Source: a virus
Reading direction: 5' to 3' (one strand)
IMG/VR virus record: IMGVR_UViG_3300015360_000025
DNA: 64,000 nt
This document shows positions 25,645 through 43,056 of the stretch, piece by piece (the stretch's first letter is position 1; every line of letters begins with the position of its first letter). The notes under the pieces were generated by a model. That model ran no database searches, was not told the origin of the DNA, and worked only from the letters and a program-made list of their open reading frames with translations. The translations under genes were made by a program, and so were the position numbers.

Positions 25645-26835
25645 ATGTCTGACCTGAATCTACCTGACATCCCGCTCGAAGCTGAAGTCCCCGTCGATGT
25701 CGAGGACGTACGTGACGAATCTCTCGGTGCTGCCTCCTACGCCTTCATCGGTTCCGGACAGGGCGGTGGACGTTTGGCCGAGGCGTTCTTTAAGCTCGGA
25801 TACCGGAAGACAATCTGTGTCAACACCGCGAAGCAGGACCTCGCCAGCCTCACGCTCCCTGATGAGCAGAAAGTCCTCATCTCCGCGGGAGAGCAGGGAG
25901 CTGGGAAGGACATGAGAGTCGGAGAGGAGGCTGCCGCTAAGGCCCAGCAACAGATCTTCGAGCTCGTCAAGAAGAAGTTCGGACAGATCGATCACATCTT
26001 CATCTGCATCGGTGCCGGCGGTGGTTCAGGTGGCGGATCCAGCCTGGTCCTGATCGAGACGGCCAAGAAGTACCTCGTCTCCATGGGAATCGATGACGTT
26101 GACCAGAAGGTCGGGGTGGTCATGTCGCTTCCGACCAATGGTGAATGCGCTTCTCCGAACGTCGCCAAGAATGCCCAGTTCCTGGCCGATGCTCTCTGCA
26201 AGTTCGCAAAAGAGAAGCTTATCAGCCCGCTGATCTTCGTCGACAACGACAAGATCCAGAAGATGTACCCGAAGCTGACCGTGAAGGAGTTCTGGCCCAC
26301 CGTCAACGCGACCGTGGCCGGACTCTTCCACGTCTTCAACCTGATCCCCACCAAGGATACGCCATACACCACGTTCGACGCGGCCGATTACGGTTCTCTC
26401 ATGCGCGCCGGCGGGTGCATGATCATGGGTGTGACCTCAGTGCGCGACTTGAAGGATGCCAACGGCATCTCCTCAGCCATCCGCGGGAACCTTGAGAAGA
26501 CCCTCCTCGCTGAGGGATTCGATCTTCGTACGGCCACCCACGCCGCCGCGATCGTCCTTGGTGGTAAGAGCATCTTTGAATCTGCTCCAGGTCTCATGGG
26601 CGCCATCGAGGGTGGGCTGGACACCCTTGCCGCCATGACTGGCAAGGCGATGGTGCACCGTGGCATCTACGAGGACGACAAAGACCGACTGGCGGTCTAC
26701 ACTATGGTCGGAGGGCTCGCCTCTCCGGACAAGAGGATCAAGGCGCTTGGACGCCACCAGGCTCCGAAAGGGGACGAGAAGACTGAATCGGCGATGCCGG
26801 CACCGAAGTTTGGCAGCAGACTTTACGACGAGTGA
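25645..26835 (+). CDS. FtsZ/tubulin-family GTPase
   Basis: GSGQGGGRLAE, VNTA..DL, tubulin signature GAGGGSGGGS, DN.K, FD..DY. Confidence 0.9.
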   Translation: MSDLNLPDIPLEAEVPVDVEDVRDESLGAASYAFIGSGQGGGRLAEAFFKLGYRKTICVNTAKQDLASLTLPDEQKVLISAGEQGAGKDMRVGEEAAAKAQQQIFELVKKKFGQIDHIFICIGAGGGSGGGSSLVLIETAKKYLVSMGIDDVDQKVGVVMSLPTNGECASPNVAKNAQFLADALCKFAKEKLISPLIFVDNDKIQKMYPKLTVKEFWPTVNATVAGLFHVFNLIPTKDTPYTTFDAADYGSLMRAGGCMIMGVTSVRDLKDANGISSAIRGNLEKTLLAEGFDLRTATHAAAIVLGGKSIFESAPGLMGAIEGGLDTLAAMTGKAMVHRGIYEDDKDRLAVYTMVGGLASPDKRIKALGRHQAPKGDEKTESAMPAPKFGSRLYDE

Positions 26836-26852: not shown

Positions 26853-27224
26853 ATGCCAAAGAAGCCCGTTCAGACATACGACTTGATCGATCAGAAGCTT
26901 GATCTCTTCAAGGAACATTTCGACAATCGCATGGGAATGGTCGGGAAAACTCTTGAACGGATGGACGAACGTCTCGATAGAGTAGATGTTACAATGGGAA
27001 AGCAACAAGGGATCCTCGAAGAACATGTTCGAAGGACCAATCTTCTCGAGGAAAAGATCGATGACGAACGGAAGTCGATCGAAGAGAAGGTCGAACCGTT
27101 CAAGACACAACACGTCCAAGTCAAGTTGCTTATGAAGATCGGTGTGGCCATCATTGCCGCTGGTGGGCTTGGCGGCGCAGGATTTGGTATCAAACAGCTC
27201 ATCTCAGCTATCTTTGGCGAGTAA
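26853..27224 (+). CDS. coiled-coil protein with C-terminal TM segment
   Basis: Heptad-rich middle and hydrophobic IGVAIIAAGGLGGAGFGI tail. Confidence 0.65.
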   Translation: MPKKPVQTYDLIDQKLDLFKEHFDNRMGMVGKTLERMDERLDRVDVTMGKQQGILEEHVRRTNLLEEKIDDERKSIEEKVEPFKTQHVQVKLLMKIGVAIIAAGGLGGAGFGIKQLISAIFGE

Positions 27225-27233
27225 GAGGTCGGT

Positions 27234-30200
27234 ATGGCCAAGCAGAAATTCCGCCCGCCCAATGAAACCCAAGGACGCGGGTTCCGTGGTGGTCAGGGAT
27301 TCCCCGTACCGATGGATATGAAGATCGGCTTCGGGGACGAGAAGTATGGTGAATTCGATGCCAGCATCGACGAGGATTCGTTCCTTGAAGACATCGTTGT
27401 AAACGTGTCTGCCAGGGTTACCGGTGGACAGCTCAAGAAGAAGGCGAGGTCTAAGGACGTCGTCTCCAAGAAAGGTTCTCCTCTCGACATCGTGGTCAAG
27501 AATGTCCTGGGTGGCCTACTGGGGGAAGCCGATGAGCAGGGCCCAAAAGGGCCACCGAATGGCATCGCCCACATCGAAGATCTAAAGCCTGAAGAGTTCC
27601 TGAGGTTCCTTGAGAAGTACAGAGACCTGCCACTGGATGGCGGACTCGAGGTATCTGAGAAGGTTGATGGCTCGGCGCATATGTCTTTCGGCGTCAAGGG
27701 TGGCCAACTCTGGACCAAGAGTAAGAATGGTACCGTCAAGATGTCTGCAGACGAGTATCCAGATCAACCGATGTTCCGCGCCTTGAAGCAGGCCCACTGG
27801 GCGCTACAAGAACTGACAACAAAGCTCCCGGAAGGTGTGACGTTTGCCTCCGATGTACTTTACACTCGCATTCCGAATTCGATCGAGTACGGCGACAACA
27901 GGATCGTGGTGCACGGAGTTTCTGGAGGAAATGGTGTCGAGGCCAAACAGGTCATTGATCAGCTGTCTACACAGAGTCTTTCTGACGGTGACCAGAATTG
28001 GAAGATCGAGTTCAAACGTGTCTTATCTCCAGATGAAGTTATGGTTGACGTAAAGGAGGAGTTCAACTCCATCTCCGAAATCTACGACGAGCTGAAGCGA
28101 CTCACACCCAACAAGTTGAAGGCGGTTGGCAAAGGACCGTACAAAGCCGCTCTCGCCAAGTTTCAAGCAATCCAGATGGCGCTAAAGAAGAAGCTTGTAG
28201 GACAACTCCGTGGCAAGAGTTCGGCCTACGGTCCAGAGGGTGGTGACGTCGAGGGACTGGTTTTCCGTGACCTGGAATCGGGTGCGATGACGAAGTTGGT
28301 CGACAAAGAATATTTCACCAAGTTGAATAAGTTCCTCTGGCGGTACCGTGAGATGCTCTATAATGGAGTTAAGATCGGCGACCAGTGGCAATTCGGGATA
28401 CTCCAACGCTTCCGGAATGCGATCGCCGACAATGTCCTCGGATCGGCCGTCGCCAAGACACCTGGTTTCGTGGGACAGTTGAAGAAGTTCGGGTATGATC
28501 TCGAGTACCCTCCTGGGGCTAACACTTCTGACAAGAGAGCAGATTTCCTTCTCTCACAGTACATTCAGAAGAATGGTCTCATGTCGGGTGACTACCTGTC
28601 TGGATTTGTGAAAGAGCTGTACACCGTCGCCGACGACTTCAAAGATCTCAGGAAGGAATGGGATACCAAGAAGAATGGTAACCTGACTCACCATGTGAAG
28701 GATGATCTCGGACATGTCATCAAGTCCATCACGATGGATCAGATCATCAAGGACAGAACAGAAGAGGCGTTCAAGGGTATGGAAGAATTCCTGCTCGGAA
28801 CTGGGAAGGCAATCGGTGAGATCGGCAAGATGAAGGGAGATTTAACAAAGAAGACCGCGCTGCTCAAGCTCATGATGGGACAGGGAAGATTGGAAAAGTT
28901 AGCGACAGAGGCTAGCCCAGGACTCCGCGAATCTGAGTCGCGTGTCGGATCCATCGAACCGTTGGTCCAGAAGAATATGCCGTTGCTGGCGAAGCATGGG
29001 TTTGACATAACCCGTCCGTCCGCCGATTGGCTTCCGAACGCCATCGGATCAGGAGCTTCAGGCACTGCATACAGCATGAAGGACGGTCGCGTTCTGAAGA
29101 TCACTACTGACGATACTGAAGCTCGGGCTAGCAACCACCTCAAAGGAAAGAAGCTCAAGTACGCTGCGCGAATCGACAACGTCTTCAGGTTCAAAGAAGA
29201 GCACGGTATTCCGGGTCGTCCTGTGAAGATGAAGTACTACGGGATCGTCCAGGAGAAAGTTAAACCTCTTTCGTCACCTGTCAAGCAAGAGCTAACAACC
29301 ATCCTTCGACTCGCAGAAGATCTATTCGGATTCGGTTGGATCACTAATGGTCGTGAGAAGAACGAGGCGCACGCAAAAGAATCTATTGCTGGTAATCCTG
29401 ATCTGACGGCAGATATCACGCGCCTTCTGAAGGGTATGAAGCAGCTCAAGCTCTGGGACATGCTGGAAGAGCTTCAGACCAATGGGGTCGAATGGCAGGA
29501 CCTCCATCCCGGTAACGTCATGATGCGCGGGAAGGACCTGGTCGCCATCGATCTTGGTGTCTCCCGCTCCCCTGGAGCAGAGCCAGATATCCTTGAATCA
29601 ATCCAGTACCTAGGAGAAGCCAACACTGGCGACGTAAAGTCAATTCTCAATAAGTTTGAACCTCTCCTTGCGAAGAACGGTATTAATGCCGGTGCGGAAC
29701 TGGGGTCCGGAAGTCAAGCGATCGTCTTCGACGCCGGTGGAGGGAAGGTCCTGAAGATTACTGAGGATCAGTCGGATGCTCAGGCCGCCCTCAAGGCGAA
29801 GGAATCTAATCTAAAGTACGTCGCCAAGGTCTTCAATGTCTTCAAGTTCCCCGGGGAAGACTACTACGGAATCGTCCTCGAGAGACTGGCCCACATTCCT
29901 GGTTCTGAGAGCGCTCCTGAGAGCACGAGCGGGGAGGCGGCGATCTTGGAGGAAGCCATTGACGAGTCTTTCCTCTTCGCTGCTTCGCGGGGAAAGTTCA
30001 TCCGTTCATGGCAGGAAGCTTTCAAAGCGATGAACGCCATTCTCAAGACCAGAATGTCTCTTGTCGGGACGCTCGCCGGTCAGGACATGCAGGAGAACTT
30101 CGCCGCTTCGATCGCCACACTCAAGAAGTACAACATCGATAAGATCATCGACGACATCGGTGCAGTCGGGATTGAGTTCGGTGACTGGCACACGGGCAAC

Positions 30201-31892
30201 ATCATGAAGCGGGGATCTGATTACGTTCTCGTCGATCTGGGTTACTCGAAGGTCCACGGTGGACGTGAGCCGGATGTGCTCGAAAAGAAGGTGGTCGAGG
30301 GGGTGCTGAAGACTCTCCGAGAGGCACGGGCTGACCAGGTAGGGGTTACCATCGGTCGCTTCCAACCGTTCCACAAGGGTCACGCAGAGATCATCCGTGG
30401 ACTCGCCAAGAAATTCGACAAGGTCATCGTCATCGTGGCCGGGAATACCAAGGACAAGAAGAATCCGTTCTCCCTCGAGACGAGGATGCAGTTGATGCAG
30501 AAGTCTCTACCGGACGTCATGTCCAATGTGGAGATCCACAAGGCTGAGTACGGAGGGAAGGGAAGCGGGTACATTCCGGGAGTCCTCTCAGACATCGTGA
30601 AGAACAAGAGGTCTTCGGTCGAGGCAGATACTGCCATCCACATTCTGGTCGGTCCGGATCGGTTCGCCGAGATCAAAAAGCAGTTGGACCACGCCAAATT
30701 GGCCAAGGAGCAGGGGACCGAATTGCTATTTGATCCCAACATGGCTGAGCTCAACCAACTCCCTGGGGTCAAGAATGACGACGATACGGATCGGATCTCC
30801 GGCACCAAGGTGCGTGAAGCTCTCGTTGCCGACCAGAAAGACGTCGTCCAGAGCATGATGGATCCACATCTGGTCTCGAATCCTGCCGACTTTGAGAATC
30901 TCTACGTTAAGATGCGTTCGGAACTGACGGCAGGGTTGGCGGGAAAGCGAGCACGACCGACCGATCCAAATCCCGCAGGTCTTGAAGAAGATCTGAAAGA
31001 CATCGGAAGCGAAGCAGGCGTTCAGGTCGTCCTTCAGGCGAATGCCGAGAAGCTCTTGGCTTCACCGTGGAAGATCGACGTCAACAAGCTTACCCAACTC
31101 GGATCTGGACAGGAGGGGATCGCCTACGACATCGGAGGCGGGAAGGTCATGAAGGTCTCGGCTGACGAGAAGGAAGCCGAGACCAGCTATGGCATCAAGG
31201 GCAAGACGAACCTGAAGCACGTCGTCCATGTCTTTGATGTCTTCCGCTTCATGGACACCCCTGGCATCGTGCAGCCGGTCTACTGTCTCATCACCGAGAA
31301 GCTCATCAAACTGACTGCACCCGAACAGAAGGAATTCGACGACGTCACCGACGAGTGTCAGGCGCAGATGGGCAAGAAGCGGTACATCGACGCCGTCTGG
31401 ACCGGAGACTGGAACCACTTCGTCCAAGAAATGCGATCTGCCTTCCAGGAAGACATCGCCAAAGAGTCGCACCTGCCGCCCGACCATCCACGTCTTGTCA
31501 GGGTCCTCGAATCTCGCATGCAGAGATACCTGCCGATCATGCAGAAGTTCAAGATGTCCGACATGATGTCCGAGCTAAAGGGATTGGGGATCAAGTTCGC
31601 CGACTACCACGGTGGAAACCTGATGAAGAGGGGAGGTGACTATGTCATCAACGATCTTGGCCGTTCGGAATCTACCAGCAATAAAGTACCACCGATGATG
31701 GAAGACATAGTCTCCAAGATCATCGAGGACTTCGGATTCGGTTCGTCTGCCGTCGGAATGAAGGCTGGTAGCTCCGCGTGGTCGACTTCCAAGAACCAAG
31801 TCGATCCTAATTCCAAGGAACTCTGGCAGAACCAACTCAATCGTATGGAACCGTTCCACTCAGGATCGGCGGACATTAAGAGACAGAAGTGA
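27234..31892 (+). CDS. multidomain protein: ligase-like nucleotidyltransferase + kinase + kinase + HxGH (NMNAT/cytidylyltransferase-like) + kinase
   Basis: EKVDG, EGLVFR, KLVDK. Three GSGxxG/VxK/DxHxxN/DLG sets (DLHPGN, DWHTGN, DYHGGN). GRFQPFHKGH and ISGTKVRE. Confidence 0.85.
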   Translation: MAKQKFRPPNETQGRGFRGGQGFPVPMDMKIGFGDEKYGEFDASIDEDSFLEDIVVNVSARVTGGQLKKKARSKDVVSKKGSPLDIVVKNVLGGLLGEADEQGPKGPPNGIAHIEDLKPEEFLRFLEKYRDLPLDGGLEVSEKVDGSAHMSFGVKGGQLWTKSKNGTVKMSADEYPDQPMFRALKQAHWALQELTTKLPEGVTFASDVLYTRIPNSIEYGDNRIVVHGVSGGNGVEAKQVIDQLSTQSLSDGDQNWKIEFKRVLSPDEVMVDVKEEFNSISEIYDELKRLTPNKLKAVGKGPYKAALAKFQAIQMALKKKLVGQLRGKSSAYGPEGGDVEGLVFRDLESGAMTKLVDKEYFTKLNKFLWRYREMLYNGVKIGDQWQFGILQRFRNAIADNVLGSAVAKTPGFVGQLKKFGYDLEYPPGANTSDKRADFLLSQYIQKNGLMSGDYLSGFVKELYTVADDFKDLRKEWDTKKNGNLTHHVKDDLGHVIKSITMDQIIKDRTEEAFKGMEEFLLGTGKAIGEIGKMKGDLTKKTALLKLMMGQGRLEKLATEASPGLRESESRVGSIEPLVQKNMPLLAKHGFDITRPSADWLPNAIGSGASGTAYSMKDGRVLKITTDDTEARASNHLKGKKLKYAARIDNVFRFKEEHGIPGRPVKMKYYGIVQEKVKPLSSPVKQELTTILRLAEDLFGFGWITNGREKNEAHAKESIAGNPDLTADITRLLKGMKQLKLWDMLEELQTNGVEWQDLHPGNVMMRGKDLVAIDLGVSRSPGAEPDILESIQYLGEANTGDVKSILNKFEPLLAKNGINAGAELGSGSQAIVFDAGGGKVLKITEDQSDAQAALKAKESNLKYVAKVFNVFKFPGEDYYGIVLERLAHIPGSESAPESTSGEAAILEEAIDESFLFAASRGKFIRSWQEAFKAMNAILKTRMSLVGTLAGQDMQENFAASIATLKKYNIDKIIDDIGAVGIEFGDWHTGNIMKRGSDYVLVDLGYSKVHGGREPDVLEKKVVEGVLKTLREARADQVGVTIGRFQPFHKGHAEIIRGLAKKFDKVIVIVAGNTKDKKNPFSLETRMQLMQKSLPDVMSNVEIHKAEYGGKGSGYIPGVLSDIVKNKRSSVEADTAIHILVGPDRFAEIKKQLDHAKLAKEQGTELLFDPNMAELNQLPGVKNDDDTDRISGTKVREALVADQKDVVQSMMDPHLVSNPADFENLYVKMRSELTAGLAGKRARPTDPNPAGLEEDLKDIGSEAGVQVVLQANAEKLLASPWKIDVNKLTQLGSGQEGIAYDIGGGKVMKVSADEKEAETSYGIKGKTNLKHVVHVFDVFRFMDTPGIVQPVYCLITEKLIKLTAPEQKEFDDVTDECQAQMGKKRYIDAVWTGDWNHFVQEMRSAFQEDIAKESHLPPDHPRLVRVLESRMQRYLPIMQKFKMSDMMSELKGLGIKFADYHGGNLMKRGGDYVINDLGRSESTSNKVPPMMEDIVSKIIEDFGFGSSAVGMKAGSSAWSTSKNQVDPNSKELWQNQLNRMEPFHSGSADIKRQK

Positions 31893-32917
31893 CTCTCCTC
31901 CGCATCAACCTGAAAAAAGAGAAAAGGAAATTCAAGAAAGCCGTAGCTATACGCACGGCCGTTTCCCCTGATCTCATCTGGAATCCATGGTCGCTTGAAG
32001 CTTTACTTGTTTCATTCGAGAGACATGTGAGACGGGTCGGTCGCGGGCCTGGAGAAAATAGGTCCGTCGCCGAACCGACAGCTCCGACCTTCGGCGGTGA
32101 GATCCAGGGACCGAACACCCATTATGATGTCGACAATGTCGGAGCTTTGTTCGAAGTGAAGGGTCTCTCTGGATACGAAAGAACCATCAATATCGGAGGG
32201 GAAGGGAATTCGCTTGTCACAGACTTCACTTCTCAGATCTGTCTAGTGGTCGGAGAATTGAGAGAGTTCAAGAAGGTGCTAGACATACTCGATAGAGTGA
32301 CAGCTCGCGCCGTCCTGACCGAAGGATTCAGCATCCAACGCTTCAACGATTTCTTCGAAGAGCTAGTGCCCAAGTTGGAGACCGGAGTGGAGATCGCCCG
32401 CGGTACCGTCATCCATGCCGTCGATCAGTTCGAGAGGATCACCAGGTTCATGATCAGGGCGAAAGCGGAGCTTGAAATTTCCAAGAAGAAAATAGGTAGC
32501 GTGATCTTTGACTACGAAGGAAAGACGTTACTCTTGGAACAGGCGTCTTCAGAACTGCAGCTGCAACTGTTAAGAGATGTCGGCGTACCTCCTGAAGAGA
32601 TTGCTCGGAAGTTCTTCTTGATCATCGGTCAGAAGATTACTCACCCATGGCTGACAAACTACGGTAGATTCAGAGAAGCCTGGGAGAACCTCGCCCAAGC
32701 CGCCGACGTCTTAACGGCGGCCACCGACGGGTTGCTTGTCGTGCATGAAGAGTACGGCTGGTTCCTCATACCTCTCAGCGAGGTCAATACTCGGTTGACT
32801 TTCGATTCCATCACCAGGCGATCTCTGCGCTTTCGTCTCAATGCTCTTCCTCCGAAACCCGTAAAGAACGTTCAGAAAACGATCCTGAGGTGTATCAGTG
32901 CCGTCGTGGAATGTTGA
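31889..32917 (+). CDS. hypothetical protein, possible PD-(D/E)XK fold
   Basis: 342 aa overlapping the previous stop (GTGA), with a YDVD-x6-EVK segment. Start uncertain. Confidence 0.45.
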   Translation: MTLLRINLKKEKRKFKKAVAIRTAVSPDLIWNPWSLEALLVSFERHVRRVGRGPGENRSVAEPTAPTFGGEIQGPNTHYDVDNVGALFEVKGLSGYERTINIGGEGNSLVTDFTSQICLVVGELREFKKVLDILDRVTARAVLTEGFSIQRFNDFFEELVPKLETGVEIARGTVIHAVDQFERITRFMIRAKAELEISKKKIGSVIFDYEGKTLLLEQASSELQLQLLRDVGVPPEEIARKFFLIIGQKITHPWLTNYGRFREAWENLAQAADVLTAATDGLLVVHEEYGWFLIPLSEVNTRLTFDSITRRSLRFRLNALPPKPVKNVQKTILRCISAVVEC

Positions 32918-33422
32918 ATGGGTCCGGGCCAAAGAGTATGTGCTCCTGAATTGTGAGTGCACGCCTATCCTTCTCAGTCAATCGTCAAAGCCTGATCTCT
33001 CATGGCTGATGAGTCGGATGGAAGAGCTAAGGATCCCGATTTCGTATACTAAGAATCTGGAAAAGATCATCTTTACCAAGATTCCCAGGGGACACCACGG
33101 CGATTACCAGGGAGACATCATTCGCCTGGCGGCAGATAAGAAGACTGCACCGATCCTAGACAAAGTTTTCGTTCACGAATTAGCTCATCATGTCGACGAT
33201 CACGAAGACATCTCTTCTGACGATCTCCTGATCAAGGAGAAAAAGGTTGCTTCCAAGTACATGGACGATGCCTATGCCAGGAAGAACACGAGTGAATATC
33301 TAGCTGTCGGGTTTGAAGTCTACTACCTCGGGACCAAGGAAGAGAAGAAGAAATTGAGGGCCAAAAACCCACGCCTCTACCGTGCGATCGCCGCTTTACA
33401 CCGGAAATTCAGTCGCATGTGA
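32898..33422 (+). CDS. zincin metallopeptidase-like protein (HExxH)
   Basis: FVHELAHHVD plus downstream YA..N.SEY.A.GFE.YY, similar to lethal-factor/Pro-Pro peptidase-type zincins. Start uncertain. Confidence 0.65.
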   Translation: MPSWNVEWVRAKEYVLLNCECTPILLSQSSKPDLSWLMSRMEELRIPISYTKNLEKIIFTKIPRGHHGDYQGDIIRLAADKKTAPILDKVFVHELAHHVDDHEDISSDDLLIKEKKVASKYMDDAYARKNTSEYLAVGFEVYYLGTKEEKKKLRAKNPRLYRAIAALHRKFSRM

Positions 33423-40335: not shown

Positions 40336-43056
40336 ATGACCACGGAAATCTACGAGCCGGCTGGCTTTGCGCTGGAGATATTCAAGAAGAGGTACGCCAG
40401 ACACGAGAATGAAAGCTGGCAGGAGGCATGCGATCGTGTGGCTTCCCACATGGCTGCAGCCGAAACGAACGGTCACGTCGCCGAGTACAAAGAACTCTTC
40501 AGTGACATCCTGAAGAAGAATCTCTTCTTTCCTGGCGGACGAATCTGGTACGGATCTGGCAGACCGAAAGCCCAACTCCTGAACTGTTTTGTCATACCTA
40601 CGAAGGATAGTCGCGAAGGTTGGGGAAAAACACTCCACGACACTGTGGTGATTTCAGGAACTGGAGGAGGAGTCGGTTGTAACTACTCTCCCACCCGTCC
40701 GAGAAACTCAAAGATTGAAGGGACCGGAGGAATAGCGACCGGTGCCGTCAGTGAAATGCGGATGGTGAATAGCATCGGAGACGAGCTCAAGGCTGGAGGT
40801 GGTCGCCGTATCGCTCTGATGATGGCTCTGAACCTGACGCACGGAGACATCCTAGAGTTCCTCGACGCCAAGCTCGACAAGAACCAGCTGAACAACGCCA
40901 ATGTCAGTGTCATCTTCGATGAGGATCCAGAGCGTTTCTTCAAGTTGGTCAAAGAGGAAGGTATCCTCGAACTCAAGCATAACGGCAAAGTCGTTGGCTC
41001 CGCTTCGGCCAAAGAGCTCTGGCACAAGATCGTCAGCAACGCGCTGAAGGGTGGTGAGCCAGGCCTTCTGAATGGCTACCTCGCCAACAAGATGTCAAAC
41101 ATCTGGTACTTCAGACCACTCATCTGTACGAATCCGTGTATCACCGGTGACACTCTTATCGCCGTCGCGGACGGGAGAAATGCCGTCAGCATCAAACAGC
41201 TCGCTGACGAAGGCAATAACGTCCCTGTCTACTCGACGAATGTCGAGACCGGGCAGGTCGAAATCAAGACCGGGCGGAACCCTAGAAAGACCGGCGCGTC
41301 GAAAGAAGTCTGGAAACTCACGCTTGATGACGGTTCTATTCTCCGAGCGACACCGAATCACAAGATTATGAGACTTGACAGACAGTATGTCGAGCTGAAA
41401 GACCTGAAGCCCGGAGACAGTGTGTTCCCGTTTAACACGTTCAGTTCGAACGGCTACAGACAGGTTTGTGGTACGGGTGCACAGATGTCAGGAGGAGCTC
41501 GCAGGAATCGTAGGCAGTACAGACTGATTAACGAGTTCTTCAACGGGCCGACGGACGCGAAACGCTTCGCTATCCATCACGCCAACTTCGACTGTACTGA
41601 CGATAGCATCGATAACTTGAAGATGTTGGAACACGAAGAACACCGGCGTCTTCACACCGAGAAGATGATGGGAGCGAAGAACCAATATCATCGAATGGAC
41701 GAGCAGTGGAAGAATGACTTCGCTTCTCACCCCGGAGAAGAGAACGGTCGTTTTTCGGGACACACGAACGAGGAACTTGTCGTCGAAGGACGTGAGGTCT
41801 TCGAAAAGAACGGGAAGTTGACGCAGGAACTCTGGGTCGAGCACGCGGAGAACAAGGGTCTTCCACAGTTTCTCGGCAACGACTTCCGATTTGGGTCATT
41901 CACGAATTTCAGGAACCAGGTCGTGACCAATCACCGGGTCGTCTCTGTCGAGTTTGACTGTCACGAAGATGTCTACAACATCACCGTCGATGACAATCAC
42001 AACTACCATGTCGTCACTAGCGGAGACGGCGAAAAGAACGTCGTGTCTTCTGGTCTCTGCGTCAAGAATTGCGGGGAGATCTGGCTGGTCGAGTACGACT
42101 GCTGTGACCTCGGTTCGCTCGTGCTTCCTCGGTTCATCTACAATGATGGTGGTAAGCTGAAGATCGATCGTCCTCTTATGAAGAGGGTCATCAGCATCGC
42201 GATCAGATTTCTCGACAACGTCCTGACCGCGAACAACTACCCGATGCTTGAGATCAAGGAGATGTGTTCCATGATCCGTAGAATCGGTCTTGGTGTCACC
42301 GGACTTGACACGATGCTGATGGAGTTAGGGCTGAAGTACAACTCTTCCGAAGCTCTCGAGTACGTCGACAGCTTGATGAACTTCATCAAGAACTGCGCCT
42401 ACGAGGCAGGTATCGAGCTCGCCAAAGAGAAGGGAAGCTTCCCGGCATTCGACGCCGAGAAGTTCCTGCAGAGTGGATTCATGAAGACCATGAAGCCTTC
42501 TATCAGGAGTGACATCCGAAAGCACGGGATCAGGTTCTGCGCTGGCCTTACCTTACCACCTGTCGGTACAGGTTCGATGGTCTGCAACGTCGACAGCGGG
42601 ATCGAGAAGGCCTTCGGTCCGGCATGGAACCGCTGCTTCCGAGATGGGGACAACCTCAAGAATGAGATCGTTATCCATCCAATCTTCAAGAGGAAGTATC
42701 TTGCTGGAGAAGATGTCTCTCACTTCCAGACCGTCTGGGACCTGAGCATGCGTGACCATTTCGAGATGCAACGGGTCTGCCAGAAGCACATCGACAACGC
42801 GGTTAGTAAGACGATCAACCTCCCTCCAGGAACGTCCATCCAGGAGCTCTCAGAACTCTACATGGAGTTCTTCCCTGATCTCAAGGGTGTGACCGTGTAC
42901 CCCGAGGGCAGCCGAGAGAACCAACCAATCACTCCACTCTCTGTTGCCGACGCAATCGCCCACATCGATGCCGAGGTAGCCGCAGGTCCAACCAGCGACG
43001 ACTCGTGCCGTGGTGGGGTTTGTGATGTCCCGTGGGCCAAAGATGTGGTAAAATAA
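40336..43056 (+). CDS. nrdJ: ribonucleotide reductase, class II-like, containing an intein
   Basis: PGGRI, LLNCFV, GGVG, EPG. NPC/GEI is split by the intein. C.LGS, RRIGLG..G, P.GT.S, IDNAVSKTINLP. No beta subunit nearby. Confidence 0.85.
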   Translation: MTTEIYEPAGFALEIFKKRYARHENESWQEACDRVASHMAAAETNGHVAEYKELFSDILKKNLFFPGGRIWYGSGRPKAQLLNCFVIPTKDSREGWGKTLHDTVVISGTGGGVGCNYSPTRPRNSKIEGTGGIATGAVSEMRMVNSIGDELKAGGGRRIALMMALNLTHGDILEFLDAKLDKNQLNNANVSVIFDEDPERFFKLVKEEGILELKHNGKVVGSASAKELWHKIVSNALKGGEPGLLNGYLANKMSNIWYFRPLICTNPCITGDTLIAVADGRNAVSIKQLADEGNNVPVYSTNVETGQVEIKTGRNPRKTGASKEVWKLTLDDGSILRATPNHKIMRLDRQYVELKDLKPGDSVFPFNTFSSNGYRQVCGTGAQMSGGARRNRRQYRLINEFFNGPTDAKRFAIHHANFDCTDDSIDNLKMLEHEEHRRLHTEKMMGAKNQYHRMDEQWKNDFASHPGEENGRFSGHTNEELVVEGREVFEKNGKLTQELWVEHAENKGLPQFLGNDFRFGSFTNFRNQVVTNHRVVSVEFDCHEDVYNITVDDNHNYHVVTSGDGEKNVVSSGLCVKNCGEIWLVEYDCCDLGSLVLPRFIYNDGGKLKIDRPLMKRVISIAIRFLDNVLTANNYPMLEIKEMCSMIRRIGLGVTGLDTMLMELGLKYNSSEALEYVDSLMNFIKNCAYEAGIELAKEKGSFPAFDAEKFLQSGFMKTMKPSIRSDIRKHGIRFCAGLTLPPVGTGSMVCNVDSGIEKAFGPAWNRCFRDGDNLKNEIVIHPIFKRKYLAGEDVSHFQTVWDLSMRDHFEMQRVCQKHIDNAVSKTINLPPGTSIQELSELYMEFFPDLKGVTVYPEGSRENQPITPLSVADAIAHIDAEVAAGPTSDDSCRGGVCDVPWAKDVVK
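41137..42069 (+). mobile_element. intein with HNH homing endonuclease (311 aa)
   Basis: Starts CITGDTLI, block B LRATPNHKI, HNH IHH.N....D...NL..L...EH..LH, ends DVYNITVDDNHNY...VKN followed by extein Cys. Confidence 0.92.

Follow-up and report, generated by a model that had tools for sequence, protein, structure and literature searches.

Three minimal kinase-like domains remotely related to the T7 gp0.7 kinase share one polypeptide with an RNA ligase and an NMNAT-like nucleotidyltransferase in an uncultured large phage

Introduction

The T7 gp0.7 kinase (T7K) is reported to act as a hyperpromiscuous kinase of dual specificity, which phosphorylates most host and phage proteins and weakens Retron-Eco9 and other defences, with a DNA-binding C-terminal domain that focuses it on nucleic-acid-binding proteins (PMC13645617). 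The same report lists ~220 T7K homologues, leaving the jumbo-phage versions uncharacterised, and points to the DPV motif for T7K promiscuity (PMC13645617). A monophyletic group of truncated kinases that have lost the C-terminal subdomain is found in phage polyvalent proteins, and T7-like modification of host proteins was proposed for them (Iyer et al. 2017; PMC5512222). Here, we describe a 1552-amino-acid (aa) polyvalent protein encoded in a 64,000-nt stretch of IMG/VR record IMGVR_UViG_3300015360_000025 (the window; coordinates are 1-based), which contains three truncated protein-kinase-like (PKL) domains, K1, K2, and K3, together with an RNA ligase and a HIGH-superfamily nucleotidyltransferase (NTase). 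T7K-like minimal kinases and polyvalent phage proteins are known; what is new is the multi-copy, ligase- and NMNAT-fused form from uncultured large phages, and no description of the architecture ligase-kinase-kinase-NTase-kinase was found in the open-access literature.

Two further systems are pertinent to the domains described here. ArkI is a small PKL protein (~216 aa) that phosphorylates tRNA, acting as an archaeal 2'-OH (U47) kinase (7vnx; PMC9095486; Ohira et al.), and fusion of an NMNAT to a nicotinamide riboside kinase of the P-loop type is also known from phage (PMC7824862).

Organization of the polyvalent protein

The gene and its domains are as follows.

27234..31892, + strand: open reading frame (ORF) of 1552 aa, polyvalent protein, in the order RNA ligase, K1, K2, HIGH nucleotidyltransferase, K3

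27531..28913, + strand: RNA-ligase module, aa ~100-560 (AlphaFold2 [AF2] model, Foldseek, and motifs)

28956..29618, + strand: K1, truncated protein-kinase-like domain, aa 575-795 (motifs and paralogy)

29631..30308, + strand: K2, truncated protein-kinase-like domain, aa 800-1025 (motifs and paralogy)

30330..30926, + strand: HIGH-superfamily nucleotidyltransferase, NMNAT-like, aa ~1033-1231 (Pfam PF01467, 8.3e-14)

31035..31703, + strand: K3, truncated protein-kinase-like domain, aa 1268-1490 (motifs and AF2 model)

31704..31889, + strand: C-terminal tail, aa 1491-1552, carrying a conserved AGSSxWS patch

The 1552-aa chain is a polyvalent protein in that several unrelated enzymatic domains are joined in one phage polypeptide. 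The start chosen by database gene callers is residue 27 of the ORF, which gives a protein of 1526 aa, and a 100% identical protein (P0002) is encoded on a 187,020-bp contig. A preliminary description of this DNA reported three kinase-like domains in tandem at 28941-31688, which corresponds to residues 570-1485 of the ORF. The three units, each of ~220 aa, are indeed in one ORF, and K1 and K2 are adjacent, but only these two are in tandem because the NMNAT-like domain sits between K2 and K3; the RNA ligase lies ahead of all of them, and the fusion of the kinases with these two enzymes in the same polypeptide was absent from that description. The AGSSxWS patch (aa 1511-1517; 31764-31784 of the window) lies in an otherwise low-complexity tail, is kept in the consensus of 51 aligned relatives, and may be a targeting or interaction signal.

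Three minimal kinase-like domains

The motifs of the three domains (residue numbers of the 1552-aa ORF) and the positions in the window of the P-x-[VIM]-[LIM]-E tails that end them are as follows.

K1: GSGASG 605-610; VLK with K622; E629; DLHPGN 756-761 (D756/N761); IDLG 772-775 (D773); tail ~29580-29594

K2: GSGSQA 824-829; K841; D848; DWHTGN 984-989 (D984/N989); VDLG 1000-1003 (D1001); tail ~30276-30290

K3: GSGQEG 1290-1295; K1307; E1314; DYHGGN 1457-1462 (D1457/N1462); NDLG 1473-1476 (D1474); tail ~31686-31700

All of the motifs on which the preliminary description had relied are located in K1, K2, and K3 where it placed them. Each unit has an N-lobe in which a Gly loop is followed by a beta3 Lys and, just 7 residues downstream of this Lys, by the helix-C acid that pairs with it (Asp, D848, not Glu, in K2), and then a variable five-helix subdomain that makes up the entire C-lobe; the catalytic loop DxHxGN and the metal-binding DLG come after it, and the chain stops ~15 residues past DLG with a conserved P-P-V-L-E tail. 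Full K/D/N/D motif sets are present, in agreement with the earlier view that all three are apparently active, and from these residues K1, K2, and K3 look like catalytically competent minimal PKL kinases of a large phage-specific family.

Pairwise blastp comparisons among the three domains give E-values of 4e-26, 2e-25, and 7e-30 with 29-32% identity, and they are on this basis considered true paralogues. Identity is 37-42% in the N-lobe and 45-51% in the catalytic loop/DLG region, and 15-29% in the helical subdomain. The helical segments had been described as differing completely, and they are much more diverged than the rest, but they are still alignable and not unrelated.

An AF2 model of K3, for which K1, K2, and 29 stand-alone homologues were aligned as input, has a pLDDT of 92.9 and a pTM of 0.88. 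The modelled order is a beta-rich N-lobe with helix C, five helices, and short strands bearing DxHxGN and DLG, and the activation segment, P+1 loop, APE motif, and helices F-I are all absent from the model after DLG. Foldseek searches of the PDB with this model return PKL folds only (APH(4)-Ia, APH(2''), JNK, and p38; E~1e-5, TM 0.35-0.41), and the top 50 matches in a VIA-align scan of 48,161 chains are all kinases (Z 9.8 to 7.3), with Rio2 at Z 7.7 and ArkI (7vnx) at Z 7.8. At the sequence level, a three-sequence profile had no significant match among PDB sequences, significance requiring a 32-sequence family profile, which matches 809 distinct kinase sequences at E<1 (best LegK4, 1.3e-5). 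The predicted fold, together with the Gly loop, Lys, acid, Asp-Asn, and DFG-Asp positions, places the K1-K3 family in the PKL superfamily.

Canonical PF00069 features are missing, in that K1-K3 have no His-Arg before the catalytic Asp and nothing beyond the DLG tail; Pkinase is matched by 8 of 32 relatives (best 2e-6) and by none of K1, K2, and K3. In the Pfam scan of the 1552-aa protein, APH (E 0.014, 15.6 bits versus a cut-off of 23.2) and ABC1 (0.022) are both sub-cut-off, and ABC1, Pkinase, APH, and Kinase-PolyVal are each weakly matched by 4-9 of the 32 family members. The DxHxGN loop and the APH matches of Foldseek would suggest an APH-like small-molecule kinase, but this reading was given less weight because APH scores too low in Pfam, the K domains have no substrate subdomain after DFG, and the link to T7K is stronger.

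Kinase-PolyVal (PF18762) resembles the K domains in the loss of the C-terminal kinase subdomain with retention of the ATP-binding and phosphotransfer residues, and in its occurrence within giant multi-enzyme phage proteins as well as in stand-alone versions. The Gln in its final N-lobe strand is also common in the K family (consensus QEKL) and present in K1, but is absent from K2 and K3; its insert between the catalytic His and Asp positions is not seen in the K domains, and the partners here are an RNA ligase and a HIGH NTase. Membership was rejected at the level of the Pfam model, with no match at E≤1 for the 1552-aa protein and weak matches for 4 of 32 relatives (best 0.0024).

The tails at the domain ends have the family consensus P-P-V-L-E, with the Glu in 260 of 269 ungapped copies, and the same tail is found at the C-termini of stand-alone single-domain homologues. 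The (I/L/M)-x-E motifs at the junctions were considered as prohead-protease sites, an idea that was set aside: the tail is the kinase domain's own, in stand-alone proteins included, so its place at the junctions calls for no protease and speaks neither for nor against cleavage.

A large family with three old lineages

An exhaustive hidden Markov model (HMM) search with the K1/K2/K3 profile of 1.84 billion representative proteins yields 1896 proteins at E≤0.001, of which 730 reach E≤1e-10, and as many as 8 stretches are matched in one protein. These derive from phage and metagenome sequences and have 1-5 full copies per protein, usually 2-4. The relatives are all from metagenomic contigs, several of them 190-200 kb, and an alignment search with the ligase finds 28 IMG/VR loci. 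By tblastn against 50,697 GenBank phage records, the whole protein and K1 and K3 alone gave two NTase matches and zero kinase matches.

The K, ligase, and NTase profiles were mapped on 178 retrieved proteins, a pool biased to the query's relatives, in which the recurrent core is [variable N-terminus]-ligase-K(1-4)-NTase-K(1-4)-[variable C-terminus]. Among the 108 K-bearing proteins of at least 800 aa, the NTase is present in 93 and the ligase in 63, K precedes the NTase in 84 and follows it in 76, and three is the commonest K copy number (49 proteins). The variable ends carry inorganic-pyrophosphatase, 2H/LigT/Acb1-like phosphoesterase (relatives P0043, P0056, and P0059), or SLT transglycosylase domains, and a distant relative (P0064) has a CCA-adding enzyme. 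There are also 37 stand-alone K proteins of <330 aa, and the ~220-aa unit is thus autonomous; K1-K3 are three compact domains that should be expressible separately.

Conservation extends through the family. Of 340 full-length domain copies, 333 have the complete set of beta3 Lys, catalytic Asp and Asn, and the Asp of DLG, and other strongly kept positions are a Thr at K+2, an Asp at K+4, the acid at K+7, an Arg 4 past the Asn, and a Ser after DLG (274/340). The residue after the DLG-position Asp is L in 240 and P in 12 of the 340 copies. A FastTree tree of these copies groups K3 mainly with post-NTase copies (84 of the 92 leaves in its clade; support 0.94), K1 in a clade of 87 pre-NTase copies (support 0.89), and K2 with other pre-NTase copies in a third clade (21 leaves; support 0.94). 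K1, K2, and K3 therefore represent three old paralogue lineages, each intact, and the post-NTase lineage is tied to its place in the chain. A recent duplication, or plain redundancy of the copies, is thus not what the tree suggests, although the nature of the difference is not thereby given.

Relationship to the T7 gp0.7 kinase

The preliminary description had invoked T7 gp0.7 by analogy, as a kinase of host proteins including defence components, which agrees with the published T7K report (PMC13645617), and the analogy proves to reflect a real but remote homology. An ESM Atlas look-up identifies a phage cluster with PF27024 (Phage_T7_kinase) on 11% of its members, and PF27024 is precomputed for relatives P0036 and P0062. 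K3 alone matched no Pfam family, and PF27024 was not returned even for P0036, so the Pfam set used may lack this model. Alignment of the family against T7 gp0.7 alone using hhalign gives 91.9% (E 6.9e-7), and against 13 T7K homologues 94.9% (E 4.2e-8) over 137 columns and T7K residues 70-214, so that the match begins at the Gly loop (residue 70 of T7K) and extends as far as the DFG-equivalent Asp (213/214). In a joint MAFFT alignment, T7K G76, K93, D195, and N200 occupy the family's invariant G, K, D, and N columns, and T7K 'FDMHSGNIM ... DPVS' lies opposite the family's 'DxHxGNxM ... DLGxS'.

Other searches point the same way. T7 gp0.7 is a member of phrog_2828 and also matches phrog_15752 and phrog_18305. 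Among the 32 family members, 7 match phrog_15752 (T7-type kinase) and 6 match phrog_18305 at E≤0.001, and K1 has a weak match to phrog_18305 'kinase' (8.8e-5), the sole PHROG match of that kind among K1-K3. When 120 T7K homologues are searched with the family HMM, 119 are recovered at E≤10 (Z=1e6), the best of them at 3e-5, and the N-lobe and catalytic segments are collinear. Foldseek searches of BFVD return uncharacterised phage proteins first (1.2e-10), and then T7-like 'seryl-threonyl protein kinases' (5e-7 to 5e-6) with better scores than any PDB kinase. By these profile and model comparisons, T7K is the closest characterised relative, and the present locus suggests that the T7K lineage has a far larger, uncultured branch (1896 representative clusters).

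The two share the form of a phage-specific minimal PKL kinase that stops soon after the DFG-equivalent Asp, with GxGxxS/G, V-[IL]-K, and an acid 7 residues past the Lys in equal order and spacing, then D-x-H-x-G-N-x-M and a D with a nearby Ser. However, the helical subdomain is longer in the K domains, three paralogous copies share a 1552-aa chain with the RNA ligase and the NMNAT-like domain, and the phage here is ~190 kb and myovirus-type, whereas T7K is from a podovirus.

We favour, with moderate confidence, the interpretation that K1-K3 are protein kinases of the T7K type, constitutively active, within a polyvalent protein that serves host takeover or counter-defence, because of the homology to a proven protein kinase and the loss, as in T7K, of the peptide-selecting C-lobe. 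With the activation segment, P+1 loop, and helices F-I absent, constitutive activity and no usual peptide-selecting surface would be expected, as in T7K, and the C-lobe loss common to both could be linked to T7K promiscuity. During infection, the K domains would phosphorylate Ser/Thr/Tyr residues of host proteins, and perhaps of phage proteins, serving host takeover or the weakening of defence systems, and the target ranges of the three paralogue lineages would be set apart by their diverged helical subdomains. The ligase and NMNAT-like enzyme in the same chain may bring independent counter-defence activities (tRNA repair and NAD+ supply), or may tether the kinases near RNA-bound targets, similarly to the DNA-binding C-terminus of T7K. 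The preliminary description had proposed a diversified kinase arsenal, of which the T7K homology and the three conserved paralogue lineages are borne out, and we infer the parts concerning substrates and defence. If they are protein kinases, they are natural examples of a promiscuous phage kinase that has been diversified and possibly targeted.

Several observations weigh against this interpretation. Identity to T7K is only ~20%, the DPV hallmark of T7K is replaced by DLG in K1-K3, and the shut-off/DNA-binding C-terminal domain of T7K was not found here by Pfam or PHROG scans. The DxHxGN loop is typical of APH-type small-molecule kinases, the top Foldseek PDB matches are APH, and the Z-score of the tRNA-phosphorylating ArkI is inside the protein-kinase range. 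Moreover, the K domain is nearly always fused to nucleic-acid or nucleotide enzymes (RNA ligase, HIGH NTase, 2H phosphoesterases, and CCA-adding enzyme), which RNA-end or nucleotide kinases fit at least equally. If any K domain acts on RNA or nucleotides, the chemistry of the fold and of phage RNA repair would be extended.

The T7K alignment also bears on whether the domains phosphorylate other molecules at all. The family Ser after DLG aligns near the T7K autophosphorylation sites S216/S218, and K2 has a weak match to the NCBIfam Bud32 model (2.6e-5); together with the Rio2 structural match and the minimal domain size, these observations would suit ATPases or scaffolds, as proposed for Bud32/RIO-type minimal kinases, or autophosphorylation of the polyprotein only. 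We consider this highly improbable, with the phosphotransfer residues strongly conserved in nearly all copies and a closest characterised relative that is a very active protein kinase.

The RNA ligase module and a possible role in RNA repair

The N-terminal module contains ligase motifs I (EKVDGS 142-147, with K143), IV (EGLVFR 340-345), and V (KLVDK 354-358), with a helical C-terminal part after them, and the motif K, D, G, E, and G are nearly invariant across 51 sequences. Its AF2 model (pLDDT 93.3) matches archaeal RNA ligase 2vug (1.2e-4), T4 Rnl1 2c5u (6.4e-4), and the Trl1 ligase domain 6n0v (6.7e-4) in the PDB by Foldseek, all with a probability of 1.0, and relatives P0043 and P0007 have Pfam RNA_lig_T4_1 matches. 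The module is thus predicted to be a covalent nucleotidyltransferase-fold RNA ligase closest to Rnl3, Rnl1, and Trl1-LIG.

The presence of this ligase raises the alternative that at least one K domain is an RNA-end kinase (5'-OH, or 2'-OH like ArkI) that heals broken tRNA or RNA for the fused ligase, with a PKL fold where T4 Pnkp and fungal Trl1 have a P-loop kinase. As in Trl1 and T4 Pnkp plus Rnl1, an Rnl1-type ligase is joined to kinases in one chain, in a phage context, and relatives add a 2H cyclic phosphodiesterase, with which a Trl1-like set of ligase, kinase, and cyclic phosphodiesterase would be complete in a single chain; the kinases of those systems are P-loop enzymes, whereas the K domains are PKL-fold, in three copies, and accompanied by an extra NMNAT-like domain. 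The alternative is consistent with the ligase in 63 of the 108 long K-bearing proteins, the 2H/LigT/Acb1-like domains and distant CCA-adding enzyme of relatives, the failure of Pfam and NCBIfam scans to find a P-loop kinase in the polyprotein, and the lack of a peptide-binding C-lobe in the K3 model, and ArkI shows that a PKL protein of this size can phosphorylate tRNA. We nonetheless regard it as doubtful, since the nearest characterised homologue is a protein kinase, end healing needs no three to five intact paralogous copies per protein, many copies (the 37 stand-alone proteins) have no ligase in the same polypeptide, and the 2H domain is absent from the 1552-aa protein. The structural match of K3 to ArkI, over 133 residues, is no closer than those to ordinary protein kinases, and no sequence-level link to ArkI was found. 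Tpt1 had no match in three distant viral records, which is uninformative.

A more elaborate form, in which a T7K-like fold was recruited as a nucleic-acid kinase and the polyprotein repairs tRNA/RNA by itself, with kinases of the protein-kinase fold in place of P-loop kinases and with NAD+ for the pathway coming from the NMNAT-like domain, seems to us unlikely. If true, the Pnkp/Trl1 kinase would have been replaced non-orthologously, and the T7-kinase lineage would have its first member directed at RNA.

The NMNAT-like nucleotidyltransferase and its flanking kinases

The central domain has the motifs GRFQPFHKGH (HKGH 1047-1050) and ISGTKVR (1188-1194), corresponding to the GRFQPFHxGH and ISxTxxR of archaeal/NadM NMNAT, and its best PDB match is the archaeal NMNAT 1f9a (5.4e-8). 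NCBIfam NMNAT models match at 1e-11, with ~42-44 bits, far under equivalog cut-offs of 127-181 bits. It also differs from NadR in its setting, the flanking kinases here being PKL-fold, whereas NadR has a P-loop ribosylnicotinamide kinase.

The kinases that flank the NTase could act on small molecules and pass their products on to it (X-OH to X-phosphate to NDP-X). Examples would be the path from nicotinamide riboside through NMN to NAD+, a salvage like that of NadR that would counter NAD+-depleting defences, or a choline-kinase/cytidylyltransferase-type pair. K-NTase-K is a conserved core, the post-NTase K forms its own position-bound clade, the NTase is NMNAT-like, and the inorganic-pyrophosphatase domain of some relatives would pull the NTase reaction forward; the DxHxGN loop and APH-like Foldseek matches, and the known phage fusion of an NMNAT to a nicotinamide riboside kinase (PMC7824862), would also be in keeping with this. 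However, the APH and ABC1 Pfam matches are under their cut-offs, the helical substrate-binding subdomain that follows DFG in APH and choline kinases is absent, and homology directs instead to T7K. Three metagenomic proteins of ~700 aa (P0181-P0183) have the ligase module and a cytidylyltransferase-like domain with no kinase among their precomputed Pfam domains, which is a further point against such pairing and suggests that the ligase and the NMNAT-like enzyme are functionally linked apart from the kinases. We therefore consider a substrate-feeding role for the kinases to be improbable.

Genomic setting and neighbouring genes

The source phage is uncultured, ~190 kb, and myovirus-type, and the genes in the window are all on one strand; they include those for tail sheath, tape measure, tubulin/TubZ-like, UvsX, DnaB, ribonucleotide reductase (RNR), and DNA polymerase proteins. 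The polyvalent protein gene has tubulin-like and small coiled-coil genes upstream and a gp32-like/UvsX/DnaB/RNR block downstream, and its position is kept at loci L001, L002, L003, and that of P0027, whose orthologues are 38-48% identical. The setting is thus one of replication and recombination genes, not head genes, and is neutral on virion packaging, being neither for it nor against it. Packaging in the virion with processing by a peptidase has hints only, namely the SLT and inorganic-pyrophosphatase domains of relatives and a nearby gene for an ATLF-like zincin.

The zincin-like gene (32898-33422, + strand) codes for a 174-aa protein with an HExxH motif, an above-cut-off match to ATLF zincin PF07737 (1.5e-8), and weaker M90 and M91 matches. 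A similar small ATLF-like gene lies 1-2 genes downstream of the polyvalent protein gene in L002 and the P0027 locus. It could be a polyprotein-processing peptidase, as proposed for polyvalent proteins, or could be merely syntenic. Upstream, 25645-26835 (+ strand) codes for a tubulin/FtsZ-family protein (Pfam Tubulin, 1.5e-10) with a TubZ-like C-terminal domain (1.4e-4), and 26853-27224 (+ strand), between this gene and the polyvalent protein gene, codes for a 123-aa coiled-coil protein; the tubulin gene is also upstream in L003.

Further away, ARAGORN predicts two adjacent tRNA-Ile(AAT) genes at 13652-13811 (+ strand), with unusual anticodon positions (37 and 35). The RNR large subunit (40336-43056, + strand) has an internal HNH-endonuclease-like segment at ~367-456, with PHROG HNH matches. 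The RNR of a relative has intein and HNH Pfam matches, and the internal segment is therefore probably an intein or a homing-endonuclease insertion.

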